From an uncultured Candidatus Saccharibacteria bacterium (lineage in GTDB: Bacteria > Patescibacteriota > Minisyncoccia > Phycocordibacterales > EsbW-18), in assembly GCA_964447415.1 (NCBI GenBank), contig CAYUSN010000001.1, positions 121,727-185,726 on the forward strand: a stretch of DNA of 64,000 nucleotides. Direction: 5' to 3'. The notes beneath the pieces are model-generated. The model saw nothing but the letters and a program-made list of their open reading frames with translations, made no database searches and had not been told where the DNA came from. The position numbers and the translations under genes were made by a program. Positions within the stretch are counted from its first letter, which is position 1; each line of letters opens with the position of its first letter. Below are positions 1 to 64,000 of the stretch, piece by piece.

Positions 1-1
1 G

Positions 2-466
2 GAAAGCAGAAAACTCCGCCGAGAGTTCGGCGGATTCAAGACGACGTTCGACCGCTTCTACATCTGGCGACAACAGGAACGCGAGGAGCTCCGTTCACTG
101 GCGCACGACGGCTTCATCACGGACTCGCCGCTGTTCCACAACTACATCGCCGCGAAGCTGTACTCCAGCGAACCGCGCGACTATCTGGCGGTACGCGAGC
201 TGCTGCGGATGTGCCATGAAATCGAGGGGCGCTATCAGCTCATCGTCATGGCGGAGGATCCGCGCGAGATTCCGTACAGGAAGGACCAGTCGCGCAGCGG
301 CAACGAGGAGAACGCGCGCAAGCGCCACGCGCTCACGCGTAGCTACGTGGAACACTTCCTGCCGGAGCAGTTGTTCCTAGTCCGCGGTTCGGTTCAGGAA
401 CGTCTCGAGCAGGTCGTGGCGCATCTCACGCTCATGCGCGCGTCGGGGAGAAGGCATCTGCGATGA
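2..466 (+). CDS. Hypothetical protein, 5'-truncated by the window edge (3' portion only). Open frame runs from nt 2 to TGA at 464-466. About 60% GC.
   Basis: Continuous frame-2 ORF entering from the window edge with protein-like composition. No family recognised. Confidence 0.4.
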   Translation, partial: ESRKLRREFGGFKTTFDRFYIWRQQEREELRSLAHDGFITDSPLFHNYIAAKLYSSEPRDYLAVRELLRMCHEIEGRYQLIVMAEDPREIPYRKDQSRSGNEENARKRHALTRSYVEHFLPEQLFLVRGSVQERLEQVVAHLTLMRASGRRHLR

Positions 467-628
467 CGATCAGCATTCACGCCCCGTCGCAGTCTCGTTT
501 TTTGAGACCGCGACGGGGCATTCGTATATAGGGGAAAACGGGTATAATTTGACAGTAACTTTTTTTAAGTTATAATTCTCATCAGAAATACGGCATGGAG
601 CCGTTTTTTCTTCAGAAAAGGAGGGTTT

Positions 629-1126
629 GTGAGCAAAGCACGCGCTTGGCTCATCGCGCTCATCGACTCCATTCACGGGGTCACGAGCGAAGAGTTCGGC
701 ACCTCCGTCACCAAGGTGACGGAGAAGAAGGACGGGGAAACCGAGATCGCCAAGATCGAGGGCTTCCTCGGGCAGTTCTGGACGCTCGCCTGGAACCGTC
801 AGCAGGCCGTTCGCGCGCAGGTGATGCGTGCGATGGCCGAGAGCATCGAGACCGGCAAGGATCCATCCGACGAGGAGAGGAAGCGGCTGGAGTCCGAGAC
901 CCGCGAGGCCGACGCGATGATGAGCCTGTTCTGGTTCCTCGTCAGGCGGCAGTTCCAGCTCGACGGCGGGACCATCGGGGTCCGCCGCGGAGGCGTTCTC
1001 GTCTCGGTGCCCGAAGAGCCCGAGGACGACGGTCCCAACGTCATCATCCACGCCGTTCAGATCCCGCTTCCGCCTTCCGGCGGCATCCTCTCCAAGATCT
1101 TCGGCGGCGGGAAACAGCAGCAGTAA
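629..1126 (+). CDS. Hypothetical protein, 165 aa, GTG start, in a ~60% GC island.
   Basis: AAAGGAGGG Shine-Dalgarno 5 nt upstream of GTG. TTGACA/TATAAT-like promoter at about 540-575. Hairpin plus T tract downstream. Confidence 0.5.
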   Translation: MSKARAWLIALIDSIHGVTSEEFGTSVTKVTEKKDGETEIAKIEGFLGQFWTLAWNRQQAVRAQVMRAMAESIETGKDPSDEERKRLESETREADAMMSLFWFLVRRQFQLDGGTIGVRRGGVLVSVPEEPEDDGPNVIIHAVQIPLPPSGGILSKIFGGGKQQQ

Positions 1127-1153
1127 CAGCAGTTCTTCGTCTGCCATTCCAGA

Positions 1154-1200
1154 GGCCCGGCGCGCAGTCAGCGCCGGGCCGTTTCGTATCCTGTTATTTT
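1154..1200 (+). terminator. Intrinsic terminator hairpin GGCCCGGCGC-gcagtca-GCGCCGGGCC followed by a T-rich tail.
   Basis: 10-bp GC stem read directly. Downstream T tract is interrupted. Confidence 0.45.
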
Positions 1201-2213
1201 TGATTCTCCAGGAATTCCAAGACCTTTTGATTGGCGAGCGCGTTTGCGACGTACGCCTCAACATGTGCGCGCTTTGCATCTTTGTGGTGCGAGAGAATAT
1301 GCTCGGTTTCCTTCTTGATTTCCTCGGCCGACGGTTCCAGTTTTTCCGAAAGACCGATGTCGTGCAAAATGAGCTGTTGCTTTGCGCTTTTCTCCGCGTC
1401 GGAGCGCCACTCTTTCCGCAAATCTTCAGGCGTTTTTTTGATGTGCGCCATGTATTCATCCGGTTTCAATCCGAATTTTTCAATGTCGTGCACGAACTGC
1501 GAAAACATTTTGTCCAGCTCCGCTTCCACCAGAATGTCGGGAATGACAACTTTTGTTTTATTCGTGATGTCTTCAAGAATCGCAATACGCAGCGCCTCGC
1601 GCGCCTTGTGTTTCTTGTCATGGAGGAGCCCGTCTTTAATTTTTGCCTTAAAATCAGCGACGTCTGTGAACGCACCGAACTCCTTCACCACGTCATCGGT
1701 GAGCTCAGGGATCGGGTCATCTTTTTTACCTGCACGCTCGTTTTTCTCGCGGAGCGCCATTTCTATAAACTTCGTGATCTCGTCGTCTTCTATGGTGATT
1801 TTTTCATCGGCGCTTTTTGCGACGTGTTTTTTTGCAAGCGCTTTGTAGTCGGGAAGCTCCACTTTCGGCATGACCGCAGTTTCGATTTTAAATCCGAGCG
1901 GATTGCCGGGCGCGAGTTTAGTCACTGACACGGCGGGACGTCCGATGGCGTCAATCTCATGATGCGCGAGCATTTTCGGGTAGTGTTCCGAAAGCGCGTG
2001 TTCCGCCATTTCCTGTAAAACGGCGTCTTCACCGATTTTTGAAAGCAGGATGTGTTCCGGTACGTGCCCTTTGCGGAAGCCGTCCATCTCGACGTGTTGT
2101 CCGAGCTTTTGTATGACGTGCCCGCGGTGTTTTGTGAGCTCCTCGTGCGGCAACTCGCCTTCGATGGTAACGGTCGCGTTGCTGTTCTTGGTGATTTTGA
2201 AGTTGGTATACAT
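1194..2213 (-). CDS. tig: Trigger factor (ribosome-associated chaperone and PPIase).
   Basis: N-terminal GFRKGHVP ribosome-binding signature and overall trigger-factor layout. Start taken as MYTNFK at 2213; the longer ORF reaches 2264. Confidence 0.85.
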   Translation of the reverse strand: MYTNFKITKNSNATVTIEGELPHEELTKHRGHVIQKLGQHVEMDGFRKGHVPEHILLSKIGEDAVLQEMAEHALSEHYPKMLAHHEIDAIGRPAVSVTKLAPGNPLGFKIETAVMPKVELPDYKALAKKHVAKSADEKITIEDDEITKFIEMALREKNERAGKKDDPIPELTDDVVKEFGAFTDVADFKAKIKDGLLHDKKHKAREALRIAILEDITNKTKVVIPDILVEAELDKMFSQFVHDIEKFGLKPDEYMAHIKKTPEDLRKEWRSDAEKSAKQQLILHDIGLSEKLEPSAEEIKKETEHILSHHKDAKRAHVEAYVANALANQKVLEFLENQK

Positions 2214-2256
2214 GATTGATTTTCTTAACGAGCGCCGCGAGTTTTGAAAATCATCA

Positions 2257-2289
2257 TCCAGCACTCAGTTTTCCCAACTGAGTGCTGGA
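2257..2289. repeat. Hairpin element, copy A: TCCAGCACTCAGTT-ttccc-AACTGAGTGCTGGA.
   Basis: Perfect 14-bp inverted repeat with the same ATCCAGCAC/GTGCTGGAT tips as the elements at 11981, 23350 and 45689. GAAAATCAT direct repeats flank it at 2246-2254 and 2295-2303. Confidence 0.6.
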
Positions 2290-2357
2290 TTCCCGAAAAT
2301 CATAGTCGTTACCACTCCTTGATTTTCGGAAGTGTACCAGTTTCCGTACCAAAATAA

Positions 2358-2395
2358 AAGACCGCCCCGGTTTTCCGGGACGGTCTTTTTCGTTT
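2358..2395. terminator. Bidirectional intrinsic terminator: GACCGCCCCGG-ttttcc-GGGACGGTC flanked by an A tract and a T tract.
   Basis: Hairpin with poly-A upstream and poly-T downstream. Lies downstream of the minus-strand 2402-2653 gene. Confidence 0.6.
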
Positions 2396-2401
2396 CCTGA
2401 A

Positions 2402-2653
2402 TTACTGTGTCTGCTCGAGCTCCTGAAGGTCTGCGTCAAGCTCGGCTTCAAGACCTGAAAGGTCTTCTGCCTGAAGCTCGCTTTCGATATTGGCGACCTC
2501 CTGTTCGTCGGTTGTTTGCGCCGCCTTCTGTGACTGCAGTTCGGAGTAAAAGAAGTACCCGCCGATTGCAAGCACGATGACGACGATGATAATACCGACG
2601 ACCGGACCGTTACTTTTTGCGGTCGGTGTTTGCATGGTTTCCATTTGTTCCAT
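2402..2653 (-). CDS. Small single-pass membrane protein, 83 aa, with an acidic C-terminal tail.
   Basis: One hydrophobic helix (VVGIIIVVIVLAIGGYFFY). Terminator immediately downstream. Confidence 0.5.
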   Translation of the reverse strand: MEQMETMQTPTAKSNGPVVGIIIVVIVLAIGGYFFYSELQSQKAAQTTDEQEVANIESELQAEDLSGLEAELDADLQELEQTQ

Positions 2654-2689
2654 GAGTGATGTACTTAAAATGAATAAATAAATGCGTTG

Positions 2690-3292
2690 TTAGTTGTCGT
2701 CATCCTCGTCATCGTCATCGCTGTCGTCTGCGTTTGCAAGTCCCGCTTTGATTGCAACGATGGCGTCCACCAGCTGTCCGTGCGCCTTTCTGATGAGATC
2801 TTTGACGGCGCCGAGCTGTACGCGCAATTCCGCGATTGCACCGGACGGCGTGGTTGTGCCGAAGTCTTCAAGGATGTCGGCTAACTCAATGGTATTGAGC
2901 GCTTCCTGTGCGTCGCTGAGTGTGTCGCGTGCGGAATCAACGTGACCTTGTGAAACGTCAACAGCAACTCCTTTGTCCGCGAGAAGATCGAGGCGCGCAT
3001 CAATGCGGTCTGCAAATGAGATGAGCCGGTCAATTGCACTCTGAAAACGTTCGGAGACGCGCTCAAGAATGTCACCGACTTTTTGCTGGCGAGTCTCCTG
3101 CATTTCGGCGCGCCGTTCTTCGAAGCGAGTTTTAATTTCCTCTTTTTTCTGCTGGAGCTCTTCACGTTTTTCCTGCCAACGTGCTCCCCATTGTCCTTTC
3201 GTTGAGGTTGAGGTCGTTGCATCTGCACTCGCAAACGCAAGCGGCATCACCAGAAGCGCCGTTGCGGCTACTCCGATAAATGTTTTTTTCAT
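2690..3292 (-). CDS. Secreted coiled-coil protein with an Asp-rich C-terminus, hypothetical.
   Basis: N-terminal signal peptide MKKTFIGVAATALLVMPLAFASA followed by heptad-like E/R/K/Q-rich sequence. Confidence 0.55.
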   Translation of the reverse strand: MKKTFIGVAATALLVMPLAFASADATTSTSTKGQWGARWQEKREELQQKKEEIKTRFEERRAEMQETRQQKVGDILERVSERFQSAIDRLISFADRIDARLDLLADKGVAVDVSQGHVDSARDTLSDAQEALNTIELADILEDFGTTTPSGAIAELRVQLGAVKDLIRKAHGQLVDAIVAIKAGLANADDSDDDDEDDDN

Positions 3293-3410
3293 ACGAATAA
3301 AAAATTATTACTGACAATAGTTCGACTGTAAGGGGTATTGTACACCACTGCCGATAGTATGGAAAAGAACGGAAAAGCGGTTACAAAAACAGCCCGATTC
3401 GGACTGTTTT

Positions 3411-3956
3411 TTAGAGGTCCATTTTTTGCTGATACATGCGTGCGGCGCGCTCGATTGCCTTGAGCGCATCGGCTTTTCCGGAAAAACCGTTGATGGTAAC
3501 TTTGTTTTTTTCGGGCAGGTCGTCTTTGAGTGCTTTGTACGTTTCAAAAAAGTGCTGGATTTCACGCAGTGTGTGTTTGTTCAAATCTTCGAGGTCCTGC
3601 ACATCTTCCCATCGTTTGTCGTGCACGGGCACGGCGAGCACTTTGTGGTCGGGAAGTCCGCCGTCAACCATGTCCATGAAACCGACGGCACGAACCGTTG
3701 CAAGGATACCCGACGGAATCGGATAGGTGGCGAGCACAACAACATCGAGTGCGTCGCCGTCGTCCCACAGTGTTTGTGGTACGAATCCGTAATCAAACGG
3801 GTAGCCGGATGCGTTGAAGTTCGCGCGGTCAAGCGCGATGAGTCCCGTCTCCTTATCAATCTCGTACTTGTTGTTGGAGCCCTTCGGGATTTCAATAATG
3901 GTGTTGAATTCCTCAGGTGCATTTTCTCCGATAGGAACGTCGTGCCAGTAGTTCAT
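3411..3956 (-). CDS. ppa: Inorganic pyrophosphatase, family I.
   Basis: 181 aa matching family I PPase throughout (DHKVLAVPVHD..., Asp-rich metal site). Confidence 0.9.
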   Translation of the reverse strand: MNYWHDVPIGENAPEEFNTIIEIPKGSNNKYEIDKETGLIALDRANFNASGYPFDYGFVPQTLWDDGDALDVVVLATYPIPSGILATVRAVGFMDMVDGGLPDHKVLAVPVHDKRWEDVQDLEDLNKHTLREIQHFFETYKALKDDLPEKNKVTINGFSGKADALKAIERAARMYQQKMDL

Positions 3957-4102
3957 GGTGGGATGTCTGTTTTTGGGGACCTCTACTCAACCGTTGGCGC
4001 GATGTTTCACGCAACAGATGAATTTCTTATAAAGTGGGTAAAAGACTTTAGAAAAACTTTATCTTTTCTTTATCTAGATTTTATCTTTACCAAAAAACGG
4101 CT

Positions 4103-5413
4103 CTATTCCCCGTCTTTTTTGGTGTCGTCGTTTTCCTCAGGTGCTTTCGTTTCATCCTCGTTTTTTCCGTCGGTTTTCGGTTGCTCTGTTTCACCGCTTT
4201 GTGTTTCGGCGTCGTCGGCAAGCTCAGTGGCGACGTGCTCTACGGATTCTTCCAACACACCGTCTTCAAGAGATTCACCGCCTGCGGACTGAATATCAAT
4301 ACGCCAACCGGTAAGTTTTGCGGCCAAACGAACATTTTGTCCTCCGCGGCCGATTGCAAGTGACTGCTGATCTTCGGTGACGCGCACCACCGCGCTGTGG
4401 GTGTCTTCGTCGATAATTTCAACGGAAAGTACTTTCGCAGGTGAGAGCGCGTCTTCAATGAAATGTTCCGGAGTTTCTGACCATTCAATAACGTCAATTT
4501 TTTCTCCCGCCAATTCACTCATCACCGTGGAGACGCGCACGCCGCGCTGACCGACGAGTGCGCCAACGGGATCAATGTGATCGTCGTTTGACCACACGGC
4601 AACTTTTGAACGCGAACCCGGTTCGCGCGCGATCGCTTTGATTTCAACGACACCGGACGCTACTTCCGGACACTCATTTGCAAACAGCTCCGCCAAAAAT
4701 TGCGGGTGTGAGCGCGACAGTCGCAGAAAGACTCCGCGTGGCGTCTCTTCCACTTTGAAGAGGTATGCGCGGATGCGTTCTCCTGCGCGATACCGCTCAC
4801 CCGGAATCTGTTCGTCGTACGGTAAGATGCCCACGGCGCGTCCGAGATCAACAAAAATATTTCCGCGCTCGATGCGCTGTACGGAACCGGAAAGAATTTC
4901 TCCTTCGCGCTGGCCGTACTCTTCCGAGAGATGCTCTTTCTCGGCCTCGCGGATTTTTTGAATGATGACTTGCTTTGCGGTCTGTGCGGCGATGCGGCCG
5001 AAGTCGTCGTGCGCATCAAGCGGAAAAATAATTTCGTCGCCCAACTGTGCACCCTTCTTCATTTTTTTCGCATCTTCAAGCAGCATGTGCTTCTCGGGGT
5101 TAAACACGGGAAGTTTGACGACAAGCTCGCCGGTTTCCGAAACCTCCGGCGCTGCGGTCTCTTCTTCATCCTCGGCGTCTTCTTTGAAGCGGACCGTTGT
5201 GTCATCAACGACCGTCTTTACCTGTTCAAATTCAGTTGCGCCGGTGTTGAGGTCAAAGTGTGCGCGAATAACCTGATCACGTTTCCCGTACTCTTTTTTG
5301 TACGCGGTTGCAAGCGCAACGGCGATTGCGTCGAGTACTTTTTCTTTGGTGATGCCGCGCTCTTCTTCAAGTTCTCCGAGCACTGCGGTCAATGTTTTAA
5401 GGTCGAATGTCAT
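4103..5413 (-). CDS. nusA: Transcription termination/antitermination factor NusA.
   Basis: N-terminal domain, S1 domain and two KH domains (ALVGQRGVRV... type). Acidic C-terminal tail. Start taken as MTFDLK. Confidence 0.85.
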   Translation of the reverse strand: MTFDLKTLTAVLGELEEERGITKEKVLDAIAVALATAYKKEYGKRDQVIRAHFDLNTGATEFEQVKTVVDDTTVRFKEDAEDEEETAAPEVSETGELVVKLPVFNPEKHMLLEDAKKMKKGAQLGDEIIFPLDAHDDFGRIAAQTAKQVIIQKIREAEKEHLSEEYGQREGEILSGSVQRIERGNIFVDLGRAVGILPYDEQIPGERYRAGERIRAYLFKVEETPRGVFLRLSRSHPQFLAELFANECPEVASGVVEIKAIAREPGSRSKVAVWSNDDHIDPVGALVGQRGVRVSTVMSELAGEKIDVIEWSETPEHFIEDALSPAKVLSVEIIDEDTHSAVVRVTEDQQSLAIGRGGQNVRLAAKLTGWRIDIQSAGGESLEDGVLEESVEHVATELADDAETQSGETEQPKTDGKNEDETKAPEENDDTKKDGE

Positions 5414-5772
5414 ACGAATAGTGGTTACCGATATCTGTGAAACAAAAGTGCCGCGTCCGTTTCTGGCGCAGCAACCATACACACAATATTAATACGGACA
5501 GTATACGCCGACCCGCACGCGTGTCAACCCCGGTAGAGATTTTTCTGCTCAAAAGAGTGTAGGAGTTGTTATAGAAAGCACCTGAAGAGAAAATACGATA
5601 CCAAGTGAAGGGTGTCTCTAACGGGGTCAACTGTCTGCTGTTATCAACATATATTATATGAGCCAGACGGCTTTGTACGATACAATGAAAGCACCATTGG
5701 ACCCGCATTCTCGGCGTTCCAACGTTTCTCTATCAACATTTTTAATCGTCGTTTCGTAACCGCACTATATAT

Positions 5773-6338: not shown

Positions 6339-8540
6339 ATGAAAAAATATTTTAAACTGCCGATACTCACCGCAACCCTTGTACTTCTGGGTTTTTCTCT
6401 GTTTCCGAACGCCGCACAGGCAATGTGTGATCCGCTGTATGGAGACGGTGAACGAAATCCGCGTATTGATAACCCAGGCTCTGTTTCTCTGAGTGCCGAC
6501 CAAAACACGCTGAACGTCTCAGGTGCCATGTGGTACCCAGGAGCTCTTTGCCCCGATCCATCGGCGGAAAAAGAGGGGCAGATGGACAGTTTTGTTCAAG
6601 GGGCGTCTCCCTCAATAGTGGGACCGTCTCAAAATAGGACAACAGCGGGACCACACACATACTCAGGTTCTCTCAATGTTTCTGCATTGCCCAACGGTAC
6701 GTATACACTCACGCTCGTTGTCGACAGTATTTTCGGTGTTCCCGGCGAGGATTTTGCGTATCACCAATTTACTATTACAAACCGCAATCCGCTGACAGTT
6801 GGTTCCTGTTCAGGAAGTCCGAACCCGGCGACAACAGGCTCCTCAATGACGTGGTCAGTTCCTGTTCCGACAGGAGGAACGGGGAGCTACACGTATTCGT
6901 GGAGCGGGACGGACAGCCTGGGCGGTACTACGCGCACGGTCAACAAAACATATACAACGACCGGAACAAAAAACGCATCGGTTGTCGTGACGTCAGGCGC
7001 GGAGCAGGTTACGAAAAACTGCAGTATTACCGTGAATGCACCAGCAAGCAATCCGACATGTTTGCCTAGTCCATCCACGGTAACAACAGGACAAACAACA
7101 AGTATCTCCGCTTCAGGTGGCAGTGGCGGTACATCACCGTATTACACTTGGAATACAGATGGCGGTTCATCGTGTGCGGCGGGAACACCGTGTAGCACAT
7201 CGTGGACGACGACGGGCACAAAGAACGTGACCGTAACACGCAACGGTGTAACATCGCCGTCTTGTCCGGTGACGGTGGGTCCGCCTACCAACTACACACT
7301 GACCATCAATAAAGTCGCTGATCCGATTACAGGTGACGGAACAGACTACGCCAATGTCACCAGTGTTAGTCCCGACGGTCAGATTTCGTGCTCGGGAACA
7401 TGTAATACAGATACGGGCTCGTATGCTGCAAGTACTGTGATAAATACTAATACGTCAATCACTTCACCGGGAACATGGGTGGGTCTCGGTGCGGGTTCTG
7501 ATGCAGCATGTGGTGATCCGATGACGATGCCGGCGCGTAACGTGACGTGCAATATGGTATTCGGACTTGAAACTCCTCCTGATGACGATGACGACCCGCC
7601 GACGGGTATCGCATGTAGCGGTCCGGCAAACGTTGCGCAGGGCGATGAGGCGACATTTACCGTGTCGGGCGGCTCATCTCCGTACTCATGGTCATCAACG
7701 GGAAATCCGGGCAGCGGTTCGGGAACAAGCTACACTACCAGTTGGGGATCGCTTGGCACAAAAACCGTGACGGTCTCCGGTGGCGGAAGTGATACCTGTT
7801 CTATCTGTGTCGGCGCGTTTGGTTCGTGCGATGAACCTAATCCACCACCGACCGCAACGGTTCATATCAACGGATTTTTAACACCGCAAAACATTACTGC
7901 AGGACAATCGGCGACGGTGGGTTGGTCATCCACAAATGCGGCAGGGTGCAGGCTAACATCTTCTCCGGTTGATTCCGGTTGGAATGAGCTAGTCGCTGGA
8001 ACAAGTGGTTCGAAAGTACGGTCTCCTTCGGCAACAACTATATACACCGCACGCTGTACGGGGCTTGGCGGCTCTGCGTCAGATTCAAACACACTCAACG
8101 TCACTTCGTCTCCGCTTTCCTGCGACCCTCCGGTACAGGGGACGTATCTCAACACAAATGCAACAGTCAATGCGTCGGGTGGTACCGGGAGCTACACGTG
8201 GAATACGGGCGGCGGCACAACATGTCTTCCCGGTTCATCGTGTACAACACAGTATTCAACAACGGGTGCCAAGACGGTAACACTCTCTGACGGGTCGGGA
8301 GTCGCATACTGCACCATTAACGTTACCGTGCCCCCTGCTGCTCTGACGTGTGCTCCAACGACGCAGGAAATTGCGCCTGGCGCAACGGCAAACTTCACCG
8401 GCTCCGGAGGATCCGGAGGTCCGTACTCGTGGTCCGCTCCGGGCGGCACTCCGTCAACCGGAATAGGCACAATTTTTGCATCTCTCTTTAGTACAGCCGG
8501 AACGTACTACGTGACGGTAAGCGAAAGTGCATCCGATTAA
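6339..8540 (+). CDS. Large secreted repeat protein with PKD-like repeats and a divergent InlB B-repeat-like domain.
   Basis: Signal peptide. Repeated ~75-aa Cys-bracketed T/S/G-rich modules (…YTWS..GG…TGTKTVTV…). A ~95-aa module (NYTLTINKVADPITGDG…ARNVTCNMVFGL) is shared with the next gene. Confidence 0.75.
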   Translation: MKKYFKLPILTATLVLLGFSLFPNAAQAMCDPLYGDGERNPRIDNPGSVSLSADQNTLNVSGAMWYPGALCPDPSAEKEGQMDSFVQGASPSIVGPSQNRTTAGPHTYSGSLNVSALPNGTYTLTLVVDSIFGVPGEDFAYHQFTITNRNPLTVGSCSGSPNPATTGSSMTWSVPVPTGGTGSYTYSWSGTDSLGGTTRTVNKTYTTTGTKNASVVVTSGAEQVTKNCSITVNAPASNPTCLPSPSTVTTGQTTSISASGGSGGTSPYYTWNTDGGSSCAAGTPCSTSWTTTGTKNVTVTRNGVTSPSCPVTVGPPTNYTLTINKVADPITGDGTDYANVTSVSPDGQISCSGTCNTDTGSYAASTVINTNTSITSPGTWVGLGAGSDAACGDPMTMPARNVTCNMVFGLETPPDDDDDPPTGIACSGPANVAQGDEATFTVSGGSSPYSWSSTGNPGSGSGTSYTTSWGSLGTKTVTVSGGGSDTCSICVGAFGSCDEPNPPPTATVHINGFLTPQNITAGQSATVGWSSTNAAGCRLTSSPVDSGWNELVAGTSGSKVRSPSATTIYTARCTGLGGSASDSNTLNVTSSPLSCDPPVQGTYLNTNATVNASGGTGSYTWNTGGGTTCLPGSSCTTQYSTTGAKTVTLSDGSGVAYCTINVTVPPAALTCAPTTQEIAPGATANFTGSGGSGGPYSWSAPGGTPSTGIGTIFASLFSTAGTYYVTVSESASD

Positions 8541-52628: not shown

Positions 52629-52669
52629 GAGAACCCCGCCAATCGAAGCACCGAAAGGAGGTGATACAA

Positions 52670-52825: not shown

Positions 52826-52857
52826 CGGCACCCTCTCTGGGGGCACCAGAGACATCC

Positions 52858-52897: not shown

Positions 52898-52905
52898 ATG
52901 GGGCA

Positions 52906-53550
52906 ATGAACGAGGTAATTAGTCTATCTTTTAAATACTCAAAAATTCTTGAAAAAGAAAGAATTACTAACACGATCAAACGTCTTAGTTGGTACAAAGA
53001 GAATAAGTATAACGTTGATTTAATCGGTTTCCCAAAAGAACTCAATAGAGAAAGGATTTTTTCTGTTTCTGATACTGATATTTCGAACGCTATTGATGCT
53101 GAATACGATGAGACAAAATTTGTTGAATCAGAAAGGTCATTAAGAGAACTTTTTCCCCTATATCACGACCGGCTCACATGTTTTTTGGATGAGATAAAAC
53201 TGTCCATTATTCCGTCCATTGTTGTTCAGCTGACCATGTATGGTATGGGCGGGAGCTATTCTTTACCAAACAAAGCGATAGTGAATATCGCAAAATATTA
53301 CGGCGTCGGATTACTGAGAAACATGCTCCATGAAATTATTCACCTGCATATTCAACATCTTATCGACAGGTACAAACTCAGCCAGTGGCAGAAAGAAAGG
53401 GTTGTTGACTTGCTTATAGAGAAACTTGTTCCAGAACTCGCAAAGCAACAAAAAATACCAATTGATATTTCTGTTGTTGATGAAGCGTTCAACAAATATT
53501 ATCCGGATGTACCACGAGTAATACAAAATATTGCCGTCTCCCACGGATAA
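52906..53550 (+). CDS. Hypothetical protein with an HExxH motif (HEIIHLH), AT-rich.
   Basis: ORF with HExxH. About 36% GC, unlike its neighbours. Confidence 0.5.
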   Translation: MNEVISLSFKYSKILEKERITNTIKRLSWYKENKYNVDLIGFPKELNRERIFSVSDTDISNAIDAEYDETKFVESERSLRELFPLYHDRLTCFLDEIKLSIIPSIVVQLTMYGMGGSYSLPNKAIVNIAKYYGVGLLRNMLHEIIHLHIQHLIDRYKLSQWQKERVVDLLIEKLVPELAKQQKIPIDISVVDEAFNKYYPDVPRVIQNIAVSHG

Positions 53551-57391: not shown

Positions 57392-57913
57392 TTAGAAAAT
57401 CGACGAGACGGATTTCCAGACCCACTCGCCGACCTCCAGGCCGGTGAATACGGCGAAGGTCCACCAGGCATTGGCAATGACGAACGAGACGAGGAAAATC
57501 ACCCAGTCCCGCTTGCTCATGCCGTTGTACTGATGTGCACCGTGTCGCATATACACGGTGCAAATGAATGGGTCGAATTTCACCGACAGAATGAGCATCA
57601 CTGCCCAGTCTCCGCGGCGCATCGCCCACTGCATGATTCTTTGAAAGAGCTTTTTCGCTTCGGCATCGCGAACCTCTTTCAAGGTTTCGATGCCGAGCCA
57701 GTCCGTACGCGACCAGTCGTAGAACTTCATGGTCGCGTAGCAGTTGATGAAGGAAAGTACCCACATGATGGCGGCACCCTTCACCAACCCGGCCTTCCAC
57801 ATCACCCACGGATAGAGGGCGTAATCGAAGACCCAGACGAGGAGGAAGTTGGCGATGTATCCAACTCCCCAGATCCCAACTCGCTCTTTGAGCGACTTTC
57901 TGGTGTTGGTCAC
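57392..57913 (-). CDS. Hypothetical polytopic membrane protein, 173 aa. GTG start with GAAAGGAAG Shine-Dalgarno.
   Basis: Several TM helices. Preferred over the overlapping plus-strand ORF 57380-57919, which has R/G/P/H-rich antisense composition. Confidence 0.5.
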   Translation of the reverse strand: MTNTRKSLKERVGIWGVGYIANFLLVWVFDYALYPWVMWKAGLVKGAAIMWVLSFINCYATMKFYDWSRTDWLGIETLKEVRDAEAKKLFQRIMQWAMRRGDWAVMLILSVKFDPFICTVYMRHGAHQYNGMSKRDWVIFLVSFVIANAWWTFAVFTGLEVGEWVWKSVSSIF

Positions 57914-58058
57914 CGTTGACTTCCTTTCTGTGTGGGGAAGGGTGTTTGGGCGAGATTGCCCGAAACCCTCATTCCACTCTACCTATCATTTTAGCACATA
58001 AAATGGCTATTTGTCAATGTACGAAAAAACAAGGTATAGGGGTATATAATCTCGGTAT

Positions 58059-58448
58059 ATGGAACAAGAACCTACTAATAATTCACAACAAAAAGCTGCC
58101 GAAAAGCTGTCACTGGAAGGGAAAAAGTTGTTTTTTGAGCGTGTAGAAAAAGAGGGAATGGATAATCACCTCTCGTTTCTTGTGGAAATCCTTGAGCAAG
58201 ATGATCCGTCGCTCAAGGCGTTATTTGACTACGGAATAGCGCATTTGCCCGCAGACGATAAAAGACCCAACACAGCGCTCGCTTCGTTCTTTTTCTTTAT
58301 TTCTGAAATTGCTTTAATGCCGGAAGAAGCACAGAGTTTTGCAGCGGATTTAATGGTTTTTTGTGAAGAAGACCAGTACTCGCCGCCTGTGATTCGGCGG
58401 GAAAATATTTTACAGGAGTTTGAAAAGGTTAAACCCCTGCTTGCGTAA
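58059..58448 (+). CDS. Hypothetical protein, 129 aa.
   Basis: TTGTCA…TATAAT promoter about 40 nt upstream. No domain recognised. Confidence 0.45.
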   Translation: MEQEPTNNSQQKAAEKLSLEGKKLFFERVEKEGMDNHLSFLVEILEQDDPSLKALFDYGIAHLPADDKRPNTALASFFFFISEIALMPEEAQSFAADLMVFCEEDQYSPPVIRRENILQEFEKVKPLLA

Positions 58449-58484
58449 CCAAACGCAAGCAGGGGTGGTTGGCGGCGGGTGATA

Positions 58485-58703
58485 CTACTTGCGCCTGCCG
58501 CCGAAGATGCCGTGGCCGTGCGCGGTGGTGCGCCCGCTCTCGTGCTCGGTGACGATCACGTGCGAGTGGTCGTTCCGCGAGCCTTCCTTGGCGTTGTCCT
58601 CCGTGCGGAGGGTGTGGCTCTCCGTACGGCCGCCGGACGACTCCGTCTTCTCACGTGTCTCGCCGCCACCGGATGAATCCGAAGACCAAGGTCCCCATCC
58701 CAT
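58485..58703 (-). CDS. Small hydrophilic Gly/Ser/His/Glu-rich protein, 72 aa, with no Cys (…HGHGIFGGRRK).
   Basis: 13-nt perfect Shine-Dalgarno GAAAGGAGGTGAT 4 nt before ATG. This region matches the 5' region of the precursor ORF at 52670 at 19 of 21 positions. About 62% GC. The longer ORF reaches 58712. Confidence 0.4.
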   Translation of the reverse strand: MGWGPWSSDSSGGGETREKTESSGGRTESHTLRTEDNAKEGSRNDHSHVIVTEHESGRTTAHGHGIFGGRRK

Positions 58704-58825
58704 CTGTATCACCTCCTTTCAGGGGGCTTCTTTCCTGAGATCAGTGTGCGCCCGTGAGTAATTTTGTCAACAGTTTTTATTTGAAGTTTTATAAAAAATT
58801 TATCTGACGAAAACCCCGCCCAACG

Positions 58826-58856
58826 AAGCCGTTGGGCGGGGGATAGGAAAGCAGAA
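58826..58856 (-). terminator. Terminator for the 58861-59532 gene (CCCCGCCCAACG-aagc-CGTTGGGCGGGG, T-rich on the minus strand).
   Basis: 12-bp GC stem, followed by TTTTCG on the minus strand. Confidence 0.5.
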
Positions 58857-58860
58857 AGGG

Positions 58861-59532
58861 TCAGAGACCGGACCAGAGGAAGCGGTGCGTCCAGTTGGAG
58901 GAAGTATCGTTGCGGTACGAACCGCAATTTACGCCGGGCGTGCAGTAGTCACCGTCGGGATACATGGATGTGTTCTTGTACCGTGTGGCATTGCCGGTTG
59001 CCATGTATCCGGCATGCACGTGCGTGCCGGTCCAGGCACAGTCACGACCGGAATCATTGACCATGGTGCCGAGCGACTTGATGTTGTATGTCCCGGTACT
59101 TGAAGTGGCGATTGGAAATTCTGCAGTTGAGTTCATCGACGCGTGCGTATACTGCATGACACCGCGAATTTTCAACTCACCGTAGTCGATGAGATACACT
59201 TTTTGTACTTCGCACACTTCAGAACCTGAGGACACGAGGGCACGTCGCCCATAGAGACGATTGGTCTCTTGTGGAGAGTTGCTTCTCGTGAAGATACCGC
59301 GGAACGAGACCAAAAGCGTACTGGTGTTGTCCCAGTCGAGGAAATTGCCGGTGGCACCGTTGTAGCACGCACCGCTATGGAAACCGCAGGTGAGCGCGGG
59401 TGACTGTCCCGTGTTTCCCGAGGGGGGCAACAGATTTGCGCGGTATTGGAACGTGGAAGCACTCGACAATGGAACAGAAGTTCCAAGGAGTGCACCGATG
59501 AGAAGCGGAATGAGCCGGTGCAGACGCATCAC
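58861..59532 (-). CDS. Secreted hypothetical protein, 223 aa, Cys-containing.
   Basis: Signal peptide MMRLHRLIPLLIGALLGTSVPLSSA. Confidence 0.55.
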   Translation of the reverse strand: MMRLHRLIPLLIGALLGTSVPLSSASTFQYRANLLPPSGNTGQSPALTCGFHSGACYNGATGNFLDWDNTSTLLVSFRGIFTRSNSPQETNRLYGRRALVSSGSEVCEVQKVYLIDYGELKIRGVMQYTHASMNSTAEFPIATSSTGTYNIKSLGTMVNDSGRDCAWTGTHVHAGYMATGNATRYKNTSMYPDGDYCTPGVNCGSYRNDTSSNWTHRFLWSGL

Positions 59533-59562
59533 TCTCTCCTTTCTTTGTGTGGTGTTGAGGGA

Positions 59563-60261
59563 CTACTGCGTACGGGTAGTTGAAGCAACGATCTCGACAA
59601 GTTTCATGAATTCGGAGCGGGGAAGTTGAGACACCCGGATGGCGGTCATTCCGAAGGATTCTGGAAAATATGCAGAAGCACGTTCCCAGTAGCCATCTTC
59701 GGTAATCGTGTTAACGATCACCACTTCTCGTCCGGAAACCTTTTGTACTTTGACGCGTTCAACCGCCACGTCAGTTGTGTCGTAATCAGAAAACGATCGG
59801 CCGATGAAGATGTTTGCAGTGTCACCATTGGAAAGGCGATAGATGTAACTTTTGTTTGAACTCATTACACCGCCGTCACAGGCGATTGTGCCGTTGCTTG
59901 GGCTCTCAATATCGAGTACGTACTCTTCCGGCAACTCAATGTCGAGAGTCAAAACACCCGCCTCACTGTCCGGCACAATCCACGACTTGCGCTCCGCACA
60001 CAGATCGTCAAACGTCGTGTACTTCTCGGGGATGGGTGTGCCCTCAGGGGCGAGGAAGATGCCGCCGATTTCGCCGACGAAGCGCGGCTTCCCGCGCTCG
60101 GCGATCACAGCCGGGTCGGTGGGAGGAACCTTCCAGAGTTGATCGTTGCGGCTCTCGCGGTCCGCGAAGAGTTTCGGGTTGAGGTACTGCACGCCGATGT
60201 AACCGGCGAGCACGAGGCCGAGGAACAAGACCGCGGCCGAGATTTTGCTGCTGACGTTCAT
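59563..60261 (-). CDS. Membrane-anchored hypothetical protein, 232 aa.
   Basis: Start MNVSSK with AGAAAGGAAA Shine-Dalgarno. N-terminal TM anchor ISAAVLFLGLVLAGYIGV. The longer ORF reaches 60375. Confidence 0.5.
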   Translation of the reverse strand: MNVSSKISAAVLFLGLVLAGYIGVQYLNPKLFADRESRNDQLWKVPPTDPAVIAERGKPRFVGEIGGIFLAPEGTPIPEKYTTFDDLCAERKSWIVPDSEAGVLTLDIELPEEYVLDIESPSNGTIACDGGVMSSNKSYIYRLSNGDTANIFIGRSFSDYDTTDVAVERVKVQKVSGREVVIVNTITEDGYWERASAYFPESFGMTAIRVSQLPRSEFMKLVEIVASTTRTQ

Positions 60262-60538
60262 GGTGTTTCCTTTCTGGCCGTATGGCCGGTTAGGTGCTGC
60301 GTGAGAGTGACCCTTTCTGCTGTCAATGAACCTCTGAGGCGCACTGTACAGAAGTGAGGATGAAATAAATTTCAAACGCGTTTGTGTTGATAAGGTGACT
60401 CCTCCCAGCGTAGCAAACTAAGATAAAGAAAAGGTAAATTCATTGCATTCACAGCATTGACTTTCTGTGTATCAGTGGTAACTTACTTTTAAGTAACCAA
60501 TCCTGGTTACTCTGATGTTCTTTGAAAGGAGCTGCGTC

Positions 60539-60739
60539 GTGAGCAAAAGCAACGTAGTCCCCGCCGCGGTACCGGACCAGCCGGACACCGCACCCAACAC
60601 CACCGAAGGTCACCGGCCCACCAGGATCAAGCAGGTGCCCGACAACGACCCGCACGGAGCCGAAGTGCTCAAGCCGGGTTCGCCCGGCCGCCGGTTCTCC
60701 CCCGAACGGAGGATGGGCAAGGACGGCTGTGGCTACTAG
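60539..60739 (+). CDS. Candidate RiPP precursor peptide, 66 aa, GTG start, Pro/Asp/basic-rich with a single Cys. C-terminus …RRMGKDGCGY.
   Basis: GAAAGGAG Shine-Dalgarno 8 nt upstream of GTG. Ends 72 nt before the second radical-SAM/SPASM gene, with a hairpin-plus-U attenuator in between. About 62% GC. Confidence 0.45.
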   Translation: MSKSNVVPAAVPDQPDTAPNTTEGHRPTRIKQVPDNDPHGAEVLKPGSPGRRFSPERRMGKDGCGY

Positions 60740-60810
60740 AGCCACACCGAGGCCTCACAGCCCTCCTGATCGCCACGGCGGTCAGGAGGGTTTCTACTTA
60801 TAAGGAGGTT

Positions 60811-62139
60811 GTGGTGAAAAACAAACCGAAGTGGAGCAATTTTCAGACAAGAGCGGTGCTTCCAAACGGGAGCATACTCCTGAAGAGTACGCTTACCGGT
60901 GCCGTGGTTTCGATAGGCTGCCATGCCGAGACCGCGGTGACCAGTTGGATTGACGGGAAGGAAGAAACCATCCCGTCGGTCGTCAAGACACTCCTGGATC
61001 CCAATGTTGGTCTACTCGTTCCTGCTGAGTACGATGAGTACTCCGCATGGCGGGACAAGCTTTTGGATCGACGGAACAACGCCGCACACACCTTTACCCT
61101 CCACTTTCTCCCAACGACACTGTGCCAGCTTGAATGCTCGTACTGTTTCGAGAACGGGAGTCAGCGGATGAAGGGTATGCGGCCGGAGCTTGTGGGGACG
61201 TCGCGCGAGTGGCTTGCAACTTACCTTGCGAACCACCCGGAGATTGACACGGTGCGCCTCGCGCTTTTCGGGGGAGAACCTCTCCTGCAAAAAGACATCG
61301 TCAAGCTCGGGCTGGAAGCATTTCATTCACTCGCTCGCGAGAGAGGGCTCGACTTCTGGACCGAACTGACCAGCAACGCCGAGCTGCTCAACGAAGCGAC
61401 TGCCAAGATGCTGTCCCAACACGAGTGGCGTCGGGTTCAGGTTACGCTCGACGGTCCGGAGGAGGTGCATGATGCTCGGAGACATGGTCGGAACATGCGA
61501 CCGACGTTTGAGAGAATCATGCGCAATGTGCAGATGCTTCTCTCGACCGACTACATTCCAAAGGTCGACATCAGAATTTCCTTCGACCTTTCGAATGCCG
61601 ATCGGGTTCCGGAACTGATTCGGTACCTTGCCGGACTCGACAGGCAGCACCGCATCAACCTGAGTCTTGGGCTCATTACACCAACACTCCAGAACCGTGA
61701 CAATGCGAAAAACGAAGCGCTTCTTGCCGAGAAGGCGCTCGCGGTGTGGAAACTGGCGAAACAGCACGGCTTTGAAATCCCGGGGGAGTTCATCACGGGT
61801 CCGTGGTGTGTGGCCATAGCCAAGCACTCGGCGGTTCTACAACCGGACGGCACCTTGCAGAAGTGCTTCTGTACCGTCGGTCGAGAAGGGTACAACTTCG
61901 GAACGATTTACGAACAACCGAAGGGCGGGTATCTGTACGACTCGCGATTCGAACACTTCCGCCGAACGGATCAGTGCATCGAGGAGAAGTGCCAGTATCT
62001 GCCCATGTGTGGCGGCGGGTGCATCCACGATGCCATAGTTGCGGCCGGCGGCGCAGAAGGGGCTCGCAACCGTTTTTGCCAGAAGACCCTTCTTACCAAA
62101 ATGAACAAAGGTCTCCTGGTACTCAATCATGTTTCCTGA
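60811..62139 (+). CDS. Radical SAM / SPASM-domain peptide-modifying enzyme (second, distinct paralog).
   Basis: CQLECSYC (Cx3Cx2C) radical-SAM cluster. C-terminal SPASM cysteines (…CIEEKCQYLPMCGGGC). AAGGAGG Shine-Dalgarno before GTG. Confidence 0.8.
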   Translation: MVKNKPKWSNFQTRAVLPNGSILLKSTLTGAVVSIGCHAETAVTSWIDGKEETIPSVVKTLLDPNVGLLVPAEYDEYSAWRDKLLDRRNNAAHTFTLHFLPTTLCQLECSYCFENGSQRMKGMRPELVGTSREWLATYLANHPEIDTVRLALFGGEPLLQKDIVKLGLEAFHSLARERGLDFWTELTSNAELLNEATAKMLSQHEWRRVQVTLDGPEEVHDARRHGRNMRPTFERIMRNVQMLLSTDYIPKVDIRISFDLSNADRVPELIRYLAGLDRQHRINLSLGLITPTLQNRDNAKNEALLAEKALAVWKLAKQHGFEIPGEFITGPWCVAIAKHSAVLQPDGTLQKCFCTVGREGYNFGTIYEQPKGGYLYDSRFEHFRRTDQCIEEKCQYLPMCGGGCIHDAIVAAGGAEGARNRFCQKTLLTKMNKGLLVLNHVS

Positions 62140-62167
62140 TGCTCTTTTGCAACACACGTTGTTGCGA

Positions 62168-62200
62168 GGTCACCACCCGGGCGGGAGGTGACCTTTTTTG
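62168..62200 (+). terminator. Intrinsic terminator (GGTCACCACCCGG-gcg-GGAGGTGACC then TTTTTTG).
   Basis: Hairpin plus T6 after the second radical-SAM gene. Confidence 0.55.
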
Positions 62201-62213
62201 TTACCATGGGTTT

Positions 62214-62951
62214 ATGTTCGAACAACATTTACCACACTATATTCATACGTTTGAAAATGATTCCCGGTGGCGGACACGTACGTCAGACCACTACATTTTT
62301 CACTATTTTGAAAACTCAGCCGCCGAAAAGGACATAGACCACATTATAGAGAGGCAAGAAAAGGCATACGCAAAAATTATGTCGTTTCTAAGTGTTCCGG
62401 AACCGAGGCGTCCCATTGAGTATTTTTTCTATCCCGACGAGGACACAAAAAAGGAACTCATGGGTGATGATTGGTACGCGCAGTCTATTTACAACGAGTT
62501 TCGGGTCCACGTGTTGTATACCGAAAAAAATAAACCGCTCGGGGAACACGAAGACACACACCTCCTCTCGCTTCCGTGGGGTCAATCAATCGCATTTTTT
62601 GCCGAAGGGTTAGCTGAATATATGGTCGGACATGCGTGGGACGGGACACCGCATCTACAGTACGTACGAGAAGGGTACGAGAAAAAACTCTACCCGACAC
62701 TTGAGAGTTTTATGCGTCACGACGCGTGGCTTGAAACGGATGACACATACGCTATTTATTTTTATTCTCTTGCGGGGGTGTTTACGTCATTTCTCATTTC
62801 CCGGTTTGGAAAAGAAAAATTTGAAATGGTGTACACACAGCTGAACAGAAAAAATACCAAAGAAGAAAACAGTACGGTGTGTGAGTCAGTACTGGGAACA
62901 AGTATTTTATCCCTGGAGACAGTATTCAAGGATTCTTTAAAAAATGTTTAA
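62214..62951 (+). CDS. Putative zinc metallopeptidase, 245 aa: HExxH (GEHEDTH) plus a downstream Glu (AEGLAEY).
   Basis: HEDTH followed about 18 aa later by ExxxE. Start MFEQHL at 62214. The 5' part of the 61803 ORF overlaps the radical-SAM gene and is an artefact. Confidence 0.5.
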   Translation: MFEQHLPHYIHTFENDSRWRTRTSDHYIFHYFENSAAEKDIDHIIERQEKAYAKIMSFLSVPEPRRPIEYFFYPDEDTKKELMGDDWYAQSIYNEFRVHVLYTEKNKPLGEHEDTHLLSLPWGQSIAFFAEGLAEYMVGHAWDGTPHLQYVREGYEKKLYPTLESFMRHDAWLETDDTYAIYFYSLAGVFTSFLISRFGKEKFEMVYTQLNRKNTKEENSTVCESVLGTSILSLETVFKDSLKNV

Positions 62952-63043
62952 GAAAAGAACCAGGTAACATACTTTCTATTGACGTAAGTAAACTGATTTT
63001 CCATTAGATTTCTCGTCGCAGAGGGACGTTGTAGTATGAGAAG

Positions 63044-63571
63044 ATGAAAGTCCAGGTATTAAAAACAGAACGCCTTATACTCCGCCCTTACGAAGAGGGA
63101 GATATTGTCGCGTGGCAACGGTGGGATACTGACGTGCAGGTCCAAGAGTATCTTCCGGAACCACTGAACAAACCTGTGAGCGATGCGGAGCAACTCGCGT
63201 ATCTCAAAGAATGTCTTGCTGAAGAAGACGGTGCCTACTGGACGATTGTTTTTTCCGAGACACATGAGGTCGTCGGAACAATTTCTCTAAGTGACATTAA
63301 CACATATCACGGCACAGCTGAGATAAATACCGTCATCGGCGAGAAACAATACTGGGGAAAAGGAATCGCTACCGAAGCCACGCGTGCGGTTGTTGACTAC
63401 GCGCGTGACGTTCTCAAGTTACGGCGAATTACGGGCGAGTTTGAAGCCGACAACAAAGGGGTTGCTAAAGTACTTGCCACGAACGGTTTTGTCGAAGAAT
63501 GCCGTTGCAAAGCATCACGAATGAAGCGTGGTGCACCGATTGACACCATCCGCTACTACTTACAACTCTAG
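63044..63571 (+). CDS. GNAT family N-acetyltransferase (RimJ/RimL-like).
   Basis: …LRPYEEGD… N-terminus and motif A (…QYWGKGIATEA…). Confidence 0.75.
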   Translation: MKVQVLKTERLILRPYEEGDIVAWQRWDTDVQVQEYLPEPLNKPVSDAEQLAYLKECLAEEDGAYWTIVFSETHEVVGTISLSDINTYHGTAEINTVIGEKQYWGKGIATEATRAVVDYARDVLKLRRITGEFEADNKGVAKVLATNGFVEECRCKASRMKRGAPIDTIRYYLQL

Positions 63572-63619
63572 GTTTCCCGGTGTTTTGAACCCGAGGGGCG
63601 GGCGTGGTATCCTACAGGC

Positions 63620-64000
63620 ATGACCGACGCATCGAAAAAGAAAGTACTTCTGGTTGACGACGACGCGTTTTTCTCGAAGCTCTACCAAAAGAAGGCGGAG
63701 CAGTATCCGCTTGAGTTCCGCGTTGCCGGCAGCGGTAAGGAGGCGCTTGAACTTCTTAAAAGCGGCGCGTTTGTTCCCGACAAAATTCTTCTTGATATCA
63801 ACATGCCCGACATGGACGGCGTCGAAGTACTGCGCGAGATACGGGAACAGAACCTCGTGCCGAATGCAAAGATATATATTCTCTCAAACACGCATGAAGC
63901 GGAGTACGCCGACGACTACAAAAAACTGAAGATTGACCGCTTTATCCCGAAGACCGCACTCCTGCCCTCACAGCTTCTTGAAGCACTCACCAACGGCAAC
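63620..64000 (+). CDS. Response regulator receiver domain protein, 3'-truncated by the window edge.
   Basis: Hand translation of the frame starting at ATG 63620 gives MTDASKKKVLLVDDD…LLDINMPDMDG…IPK, a receiver domain. This frame has no stop inside the window. Confidence 0.7.
   Translation, partial: MTDASKKKVLLVDDDAFFSKLYQKKAEQYPLEFRVAGSGKEALELLKSGAFVPDKILLDINMPDMDGVEVLREIREQNLVPNAKIYILSNTHEAEYADDYKKLKIDRFIPKTALLPSQLLEALTNGN

Follow-up and report, generated by a model that had tools for sequence, protein, structure and literature searches.

Bacteroidota and Cyanobacteria are lineages poor in Shine–Dalgarno (SD) sequences, in which a few genes, such as rpsU in Flavobacteria, keep a strong SD. 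A related arrangement is found in the 64,000-nucleotide stretch of contig CAYUSN010000001.1 analyzed here (the window): the two are alike in having A/T-rich, SD-free starts on core genes next to a small and specific set of genes with strong SDs, whereas in the window, which comes from another lineage, this set consists of mobile accessory genes and precursors of ribosomally synthesized and post-translationally modified peptides (RiPPs) rather than of a ribosomal autoregulatory gene. A second parallel is group C of GeneMarkS-2 (for example Actinobacteria and Deinococcus; PMC6028130), where, as here, a Pribnow box lies near the start of many first genes (at 6–8 nt there and 5–12 nt here) and the others rely on a start signal of another kind. 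In group C, however, an SD precedes most of the internal and leadered genes, whereas none of 34 core genes does so here, all internal ribosomal protein (r-protein) genes included, and SDs are confined to accessory cassettes.

The host is a Kaiserbacteria-like Parcubacterium of the Candidate Phyla Radiation (CPR), to judge by its r-proteins. L2 is 80% identical to that of the metagenome-assembled genome (MAG) GCA_964608145.1, 67–69% identical to those of two Ca. Kaiserbacteria MAGs and at most 54% identical to those of named non-CPR genomes. The gene for uL30, whose absence is a CPR trait (PMC9297842), is missing, rpsE (S5, 35833–36486) being followed directly by rplO (L15, from 36492). In this same superphylum, Tsurumaki et al. 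(2022, PMC9297842) detected the CCTCCT anti-SD motif in only 48% of the 16S genes of Parcubacteria, and an SD-less core, as we describe for the window and 12 relatives, is what that report would predict. The report concerns rRNA only, whereas the strong, conserved SDs described here argue that this lineage keeps a usable anti-SD. Our literature search found no paper on SD or leaderless usage of CPR mRNAs.

Part of the SD-led set is comparable to known RiPP clusters built around a radical S-adenosylmethionine (rSAM) enzyme with a SPASM domain (ranthipeptide, SCIFF and Cys-rich peptide maturases; TIGR04463, NF038107, NF047865). The window shares with them an enzyme beside a short Cys-rich precursor, a strong SD, a terminator or attenuator and a putative HExxH peptidase; it differs in its CPR host, in enzymes that score below the family cut-offs and in the precursor of cassette 1, which is placed after the enzyme. 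The explanation that we favor, to which we give a probability of about 60% as a whole, is that host ribosomes would use two start modes, one for an SD-less core and one for an SD-led accessory minority, and that the SD-led genes would be mobile accessory cassettes that carry their own expression signals and circulate for the most part among members of the CPR. These cassettes comprise two rSAM/SPASM peptide-maturation sets with their precursors, several proteins that are small or confined to the lineage, and two small units inserted in the S10 cluster.

Start signals of core and accessory genes

The core/accessory dichotomy in SD usage is plain in the window. We set start codons by the N-termini of homologues in relatives and by those conserved among r-proteins, and scored 69 genes by the duplex energy of their −21 to −4 region with the canonical 16S tail. 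Thirteen of the 69 are SD-led, with energies of −9 to −23 kcal/mol, against none of the 34 housekeeping genes (tuf, 25 r-protein genes, secY, adk, map, nusA, ppa, tig, infC, ndk and an RNase J-like gene), all of which lie between +1.0 and −7.1 kcal/mol. Exact SD matches of at least 7 nt precede 10 genes, compared with 1.7% of internal start-like codons (binomial 3e-7), a null by which a chance origin of the sites was rejected, and the regions upstream of core genes are less SD-like than those before internal start-like codons (p = 2e-4). The SD motifs lie 3–6 nt before the start codons. An earlier, sequence-only reading of this DNA had proposed that housekeeping genes lack an SD, that genes in GC-rich islands carry strong ones and that the two groups may be initiated differently; two regimes are indeed present, core genes without an SD and accessory genes with a strong SD at working distance. 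Every SD that it listed was found at or beside its coordinate, with two starts shifting (48865 to 48871 and 60811 to 60814), and three further SD-led genes join the list, at ATG 21303 (GAAAGGGG) and, on the minus strand, at ATG 59529 and ATG 60261.

Each SD-led cassette combines a near-consensus sigma-70 promoter, placed 35–75 nt upstream, with a long leader and a strong SD that is often extended, and many have their own terminator (Table 1); the membrane protein gene TM21303 is the weakest member of the set. A 13-nt SD, GAAAGGAGGTGAT, precedes both ATG 52670 and ATG 58703 (minus strand). These two small open reading frames (ORFs), 52670–52825 and 58485–58703, are apparently unrelated and share an identical 16-nt start region before the ATG, GAAAGGAGGTGATACA, which includes a 13-nt perfect complement of the canonical 16S tail and upstream of which there is no similarity.

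Core genes start in another way. A −10-like hexamer ends 5–12 nt before the start of 14 of 30 SD-less first genes, where 10% would be expected (p = 3e-7), and in 11 promoter-proximal SD-led genes the −10 box is always at least 35 nt upstream of the start. The distance from box to ATG is 9 nt for tuf, 12 nt for rpsJ and 7 nt for adk (TATACT); it is 6 nt for the ATPase gene at 42278 (TATACT), 7 nt for ndk, 8 nt for a histidine kinase gene and 10 nt for infC. The SLOG-domain gene at 48024 has TACAAT 6 nt and TATACT 11 nt before its start, and the nusA promoter, TTGACA-16-TATACT, ends 17 nt before its own. A −10 box close to the start is the geometry by which GeneMarkS-2 recognizes leaderless bacterial genomes (PMC6028130), and in about half of the first-in-operon core genes the box is so near the start that the mRNA would be leaderless or nearly so. 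Operon-internal core genes place their ATG 3–10 nt past the preceding TAA stop in A/T-rich sequence, which suggests re-initiation or initiation at an unstructured site.

Absence of SDs from the core is a trait of the lineage: in all 12 Parcubacteria-type relative loci scored (36–65% GC), 0–7% of r-protein genes reach a duplex energy of −9 kcal/mol or lower, whereas 100% do so in Bacillus and Acetivibrio control loci. Two control loci looked off-label: a contig labelled Phocaeicola dorei (L017) with an SD on 75% of its r-protein genes, and one labelled Streptomyces cinereus (L033) with 44% GC. Both may be mis-binned or mislabelled records.

Conservation of the SDs and the proposed anti-SD

The SDs are conserved. 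Between the window and a sister MAG (L001), 41 of 41 SD-core bases are unchanged, whereas 25 of 125 flanking leader positions have changed (Fisher p = 4e-4); because the cores are invariant while their flanks diverge, the SDs are maintained where the genes live and are not relics. The cassette around the gene at 629 (unk629) tells a similar story: its syntenic homologue in a close relative (L086) is only 74% identical in coding sequence and retains the promoter and the SD, the latter in altered form (AAGGAGGAGAGTGTG versus AAAGGAGGGTTTGTG). ATG 595 was rejected as the start of this gene, being out of frame with the conserved ORF, and the relative shares the SD and the GTG start. In the family of the gene at 48871, an SD is present in all five other CPR lineages that we opened (six with the window) at protein identities down to 40%, and almost all neighboring genes in those five are without one. 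Among four aligned CPR lineages, AAAGGAGA is the only conserved leader block before this gene; of the two leaders outside the alignment, that of L212 has GGGAGGGG and that of L213 a weaker ACGGAGA.

From SDs that are conserved, correctly spaced and extended, we infer a working anti-SD in the host 16S rRNA. Such a model predicts that the 3′ end of the 16S reads ...CCUCCUUUC and that the anti-SD of this lineage is intact, opposite to the loss reported in part of Parcubacteria. Neither the window nor the first 80 loci gave a match when scanned for the 16S 3′-end motif. It is improbable, in our estimate, that the host has instead lost its anti-SD and that the SD-like motifs are relics or other elements, such as leader hairpin arms or attenuators. 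Such a loss would suit the motif frequency of 48% (PMC9297842) and a core that is fully SD-free here and in all relatives scored, and one SD-like sequence, TCAGGAGGG (within 60740–60800), does form the 3′ arm of a hairpin. It sits badly with motifs placed 3–6 nt before start codons, with two apparently unrelated genes whose motif pairs perfectly with the canonical 16S tail over 13 nt and with motifs that stay invariant where the flanking leader diverges. A weak further point is that trigger factor loss is reported to correlate with anti-SD loss (bioRxiv 10.1101/755876), and the trigger factor gene (tig) is present in the window.

Composition, movement and origin of the SD-led genes

The association of SDs with base composition is real. 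GC content at third codon positions (GC3) is higher in SD-led than in other window genes (0.747 versus 0.560; Mann–Whitney p = 1.4e-7), SD strength correlates with it (Spearman rho −0.45), and most SD-led genes reach 0.76–0.88 against a core mean of 0.59; their coding-model scores are lower, and their composition is atypical relative to the core. The proposed islands of 60–62% GC stand only in part: bases 1–1130 reach 60% and the small ORFs 58–68%, but rSAM1 has 53%, rSAM2 56% and the 57.4–60.3-kb block 54–55%. The window has 51.1% GC overall, and only the first of its 1-kb bins reaches 60%. Several core genes with a GC3 of 0.67–0.74 are nonetheless without an SD (tuf, 0.67; secY; L20; L35, 0.74), as is an MscS-like gene (0.70). 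A third class consists of atypical low-GC genes (36–45%) without an SD, two of them partners within the rSAM cassettes (52906–53550, 36%; 62139–62951, 44%).

Other CPR genomes show how composition and SD relate. Pooled over six other CPR loci, SD-led genes have a GC3 excess of +0.14 (p = 0.001). The 48871 homologue is GC-richer than its host in four of five other CPR lineages, as in the window, with 55% GC in a 34% GC Wolfebacteria locus and 63% (GC3 0.86) in a 45% GC Doudnabacteria locus; because this holds at protein identities down to 40%, composition travels with the gene. High GC3 is a gene-specific property that accompanies genes across hosts, and its source may be GC-biased gene conversion in often exchanged DNA or a GC-richer mobile reservoir. 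Of six SD-led genes in the Wolfebacteria locus, the five located around rSAM/SPASM and ATP-grasp genes have a host-like low GC, and SDs therefore track accessory and RiPP genes and not GC as such.

These data bear on whether the contrast could be a by-product of mRNA architecture or composition, with long, GC-rich, structured leaders needing an SD and short A/T-rich ones doing without. We give this little credence. All SD-led genes do have leaders of 35–75 nt and the leaderless-type genes none, and SD strength does follow GC3; but rplC and rpsS, with leaders of ~91 nt and ~78 nt (the rpsS promoter being TTGACC-17-TACTAT at 30246–30274), are core genes that still lack an SD, as do the GC3-rich genes for L35, the MscS-like protein and tuf, and SD-led genes of low GC are frequent at the Wolfebacteria locus and, elsewhere, include RiPP precursors (below). 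Under the two-mode explanation, the common trait of the SD-led genes would be movement or recombination between related genomes rather than GC content.

SD-led genes are mobile, and their divergence is incongruent with that of the core. The two rSAM cassettes, which in the sister MAG are contiguous with one another and adjoin nusA, occupy a different locus there than in the window, and their DNA is 85–87% identical to that of the window, compared with 81% for tuf, 80% for rplB and 66–77% for other core genes. The island holding unk629 and an AAA_28-like gene is syntenic in L086/L087; to a strain whose core (tig, ppa and neighbors) is 93–100% identical, it is only 72–82% identical. The unk629 gene appears hypervariable. 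Its promoter and leader are nearly identical in two strains (window 549–628; L086 ~190–270), and the coding sequence falls to ~74% identity right after the SD. The gap between rplB (L2) and rpsS (S19) holds, in the sister MAG, terminators, a minus-strand 61-aa ORF (GC3 0.90), the SD GGAGGAG and a promoter; this ORF is apparently unrelated to the 62-aa ORF of the window, as judged by eye without aligning the proteins, which suggests that the gap is a recurrent insertion site. Pfam detected no integrase or transposase in the window, nor was there a tRNA target.

The sequence-only reading had taken SDs and high GC to mark islands acquired from SD-using donors. That these genes have a history decoupled from the core holds up, in view of the rSAM cassettes, the unk629 island and the patchy rSAM1 family, whose homologues are scattered over four other phyla (Sterolibacterium, Prolixibacteraceae, Nitrospirota and Verrucomicrobia). 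The claim about donors is not supported. Among 94 homologues of the 48871 protein, the eight with an organism name are all CPR/Patescibacteria or labelled only 'bacterium' (Wolfebacteria, Zambryskibacteria, Paceibacterota, Doudnabacteria, Patescibacteria group or 'bacterium'), and unk629 is lineage-restricted: a search of 5.8 billion proteins gave only two homologues of it, of which one lies in synteny in a close relative; together with the invariant SD cores, this speaks against SDs as a mark of SD-using donors. GC content fails as a donor signature too. On a 590-kb contig (L085, 8730–12681; ENA ERZ25039483 contig_12274), the same type of RiPP cassette, made up of an rSAM gene, two precursors and a gene for a 220-aa protein, has 31–45% GC, and both precursors, which share the leader motif VTGI...PTGF, are led by a strong SD. 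It adjoins a Transposase_mut gene, and the surrounding genes, SurA among them, have 49–60% GC and look SD-less.

Recent import of SD-bearing, GC-rich genes from SD-using and GC-richer outside donors, with inherited SDs that may or may not work, is in our judgment unlikely, if less so than either anti-SD loss or an effect of mRNA architecture. It would account for the atypical GC3, for the patchiness of rSAM1 across phyla, for cassettes whose loci differ between genomes and whose divergence is more recent than that of the core, and for the wedge ORFs at 26675 and 30095 (minus strand), neither of which has a homologue in 14 Parcubacteria-type relative loci. It would leave unexplained a 48871 family whose named members are CPR or 'bacterium' and whose SD is kept in six lineages, an unk629 gene confined to the lineage whose syntenic copy in a relative retains the SD, and SD cores that do not change while their flanks do; moreover, GC spans 36–67% within one cassette, and a cassette of this type at 31–45% GC still has SD-led precursors.

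Several points weigh against circulation of SD-led cassettes within CPR and a two-mode host. The data are 64 kb of one genome plus ~20-kb pieces of relatives. The leaderless or near-leaderless state of about half of the core first genes is predicted from −10-like hexamers. Some accessory starts were chosen partly with the SD in view, and seven SD-guided accessory starts match the lengths of independently called homologues. Had each of the two genomes taken up the rSAM cassettes from a third lineage in separate and recent events, the conserved SDs would reflect selection there and not in the host. Given the 48% survey figure, the working anti-SD that we propose runs against a possible lineage trait, and, given the Wolfebacteria locus, the link between GC3 and SD is not general. 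A more far-reaching version, which we hold only tentatively, is a two-tier initiation system in Parcubacteria. In it, the vertically inherited core would have given up the SD for leaderless and coupled starts, and the anti-SD would be kept essentially for a shared mobile pool of RiPP cassettes and small lineage-specific proteins, moving between CPR lineages as units of promoter, leader and strong SD and keeping a GC3-rich composition whatever the GC of the host.

Start calling in CPR works with a single start-signal model for each genome, and start signals that differ between core and accessory genes would mislead gene prediction, misplacing starts and hiding small accessory ORFs such as RiPP precursors. 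If it is true that SDs mark mobile genes, they would offer a cheap finder of the flexible genome, and of peptide natural-product cassettes, in uncultured ultra-small bacteria. The pattern is a variant of known start-signal heterogeneity, and its sharpest value lies in the prediction on the 16S anti-SD.

Cassettes and gene layout of the window

Table 1. Features of the window. Rows without coordinates give the gene layout as annotated with Pfam and NCBIfam.
Feature	Coordinates	Strand	Description
unk629 cassette	549–1126	+	promoter TTGACA-16-TATAAT 549–576; SD 617–625 AAAGGAGGG; GTG 629; 165-aa ORF
SD-less core block	1194–5482	−	tig, 83-aa transmembrane protein, 200-aa protein, ppa, nusA
TM21303	21289–21908	+	201-aa membrane protein; SD-like GAAAGGGG at 21289–21296; GC3 0.72
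SD-less core block	22143–39608	+	tuf, rpsJ, rplC-rplD-rplW-rplB, rpsS-rplV-rpsC, rplP...rplE, rpsN-rpsH, rplF...rplO-secY, adk-map
26675 unit	26578–26990	+	terminator 26578–26603; promoter TTGACT-17-TATAGT 26611–26639; SD 26662–26670 AAGGGAGGT; ATG 26675
30095 unit	29803–30109	−	terminators 29803–29830 and 29852–29879; 62-aa ORF 30095–29907; SD 30102–30109
o48871 cassette	48784–49449	+	TTGACA-16-TAAGAT ~60 nt upstream; leader hairpin; SD 48857–48865 AAAAGGAGA; ATG 48871
RiPP-type cassette 1	51493–53550	+	promoter ~51493–51525; SD 51558–51569; rSAM/SPASM gene (rSAM1) 51576–52628, 53% GC
Cassette 1 precursor	52670–52825	+	51 aa, Cys/Asp-rich, 6 Cys; 67% GC; 13-nt SD 52653–52665 GAAAGGAGGTGAT
Cassette 1 terminator	~52845–52885	+	
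Cassette 1 HExxH protein	52906–53550	+	36% GC; no SD; −10-like CACAAT ends 6 nt before ATG
Block of four SD-led genes	57392–60275	−	the four block genes below
Block gene	57913–57392	−	173-aa membrane protein; GTG 57913; SD 57920–57929
Block gene	58703–58485	−	72-aa Gly/Ser/His-rich protein; 13-nt SD 58708–58720
Block gene	59529–58861	−	222 aa; SD 59534–59544
Block gene	60261–59563	−	232 aa; SD 60265–60275
Gene inside the block	58059–58448	+	43% GC; TATAAT ends 8 nt before ATG (leaderless type)
RiPP-type cassette 2	60470–62951	+	promoter TTGACT-16-TAACTT; −10 ends 54 nt before start 60539
Cassette 2 precursor-like ORF	60539–60739	+	66 aa; GTG start; 68% GC; SD 60524–60532
Cassette 2 rSAM/SPASM gene (rSAM2)	60814–62139	+	GTG start, conserved; 56% GC; SD 60801–60809 TAAGGAGGT
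Cassette 2 HExxH protein	62139–62951	+	44% GC; start overlaps rSAM2 stop
Palindromic element, rplJ/rplL spacer	12805–12942		core 12898–12932
Palindromic element, rpsC/rplP spacer	31778–31905		core 31865–31899
Palindromic element, rpsH/rplF spacer	34804–34941		core 34900–34934
tig, ppa, nusA		−	
Large surface proteins			PKD and Ig-like
rplJ region			GIY-YIG gene, rplJ-rplL, three large unknown ORFs
tuf region			tuf, rpsJ, 885-aa Ig-like surface protein (wedged), rplC
Remaining S10/spc cluster			no L30; then secY, adk, map
Genes after map			HerA/TraG-like ATPase, ndk, RNase J-like gene, infC-rpmI-rplT
Last genes			two rSAM genes and several unknown ORFs

Both rSAM enzymes resemble RiPP maturases and score below every curated family cut-off. 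They match Pfam Radical_SAM and Fer4_12, the motifs CNFRCSWC and CVECEKFNICAGGC can be read from their translations, and homologues are named 'SPASM domain' proteins by JGI; against curated maturase cut-offs, rSAM2 scores best with TIGR04463 (148 bits versus a cut-off of 525), and rSAM1 has generic matches only. The spacer between the 66-aa ORF and rSAM2 (within 60740–60800) holds a hairpin of 9 bp without mismatch, CCCTCCTGA...TCAGGAGGG, and TTTCT after it; its arms are anti-SD-like and SD-like, and the alignment shows it kept in the sister MAG. Attenuation by this hairpin may set the ratio of precursor to enzyme.

The unk629 gene has 65% GC and a GC3 of 0.88, and the AAA_28-like gene 5′ of it (2–466, GC3 0.81) belongs to the same island. 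Its 52-nt leader carries a conserved small hairpin and a U-tract; within 549–628, an ACGGC/GCCGT hairpin followed by six T has an attenuator-like look. The 26675 unit, between an Ig-like surface protein gene and rplC, encodes an 82-aa CxxC...CxxC protein (26675–26923) followed by a hairpin, and the minus-strand ORF at 30095, between rplB and rpsS, has a hydrophobic tail, 64% GC and a GC3 of 0.86. The 192-aa protein encoded at 48871 (59% GC, GC3 0.76) gave a structure model with a predicted local distance difference test score of 84.6 and no informative fold match; beside rSAM1, the sister MAG has an AF_1845-like gene, which was rejected as the counterpart of 48871 for lack of similarity.

An assembly chimera was rejected, as independent assemblies from NCBI and from Logan (SRR14787578/9, in which the same organism occurs) repeat the gene order; the second assembly covers 34.9–48.6 kb, the interiors of the rSAM cassettes and the unk629 island, and most cassette/core junctions lie outside it. 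The S10 cluster is split into several transcription units, each with terminators and promoters (window 23887–27094 and 29795–30352; sister MAG 3637–4400 and 7320–7838), and between rpsJ and rplC lie the gene for the 885-aa Ig-like surface protein (45% GC) and a small Zn-ribbon-like gene. Upstream of rplJ (12271), a large unknown ORF and an 84-aa GIY-YIG nuclease-family gene (12016–12270, 43% GC, without an SD), which lies directly 5′ of rplJ, stand in place of rplK-rplA; a uL1 remnant was considered for the latter ORF and rejected, the product being a GIY-YIG protein. Absence of uL1 is a feature of the Parcubacteria subgroup that lacks the anti-SD (PMC9297842). Downstream of rplL, three large unknown ORFs (13473–19522) take the place of rpoB-rpoC. 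The window contains no tRNA, and no Rfam match reached the gathering score, hence no rRNA was found.

A palindromic element of ~115–135 nt is present in three copies that fill r-protein gene spacers (Table 1), each ending 10–12 nt before the ATG, with fold z-scores of −3.1 to −4.4. It has no Rfam match. At the one site compared, the rpsC/rplP copy is apparently absent in the sister MAG, whose spacer measures ~25 nt versus 128 nt. Its right arm, TTGTTTCGGATTTCGATATTCGGATTTCGAATTT (7-mers TTCGRAT), has exact matches in at least 120 metagenome contigs of 36–67% GC, many of them at contig ends and about half accompanied by the inverted left arm, and the element looks like a miniature inverted-repeat transposable element.

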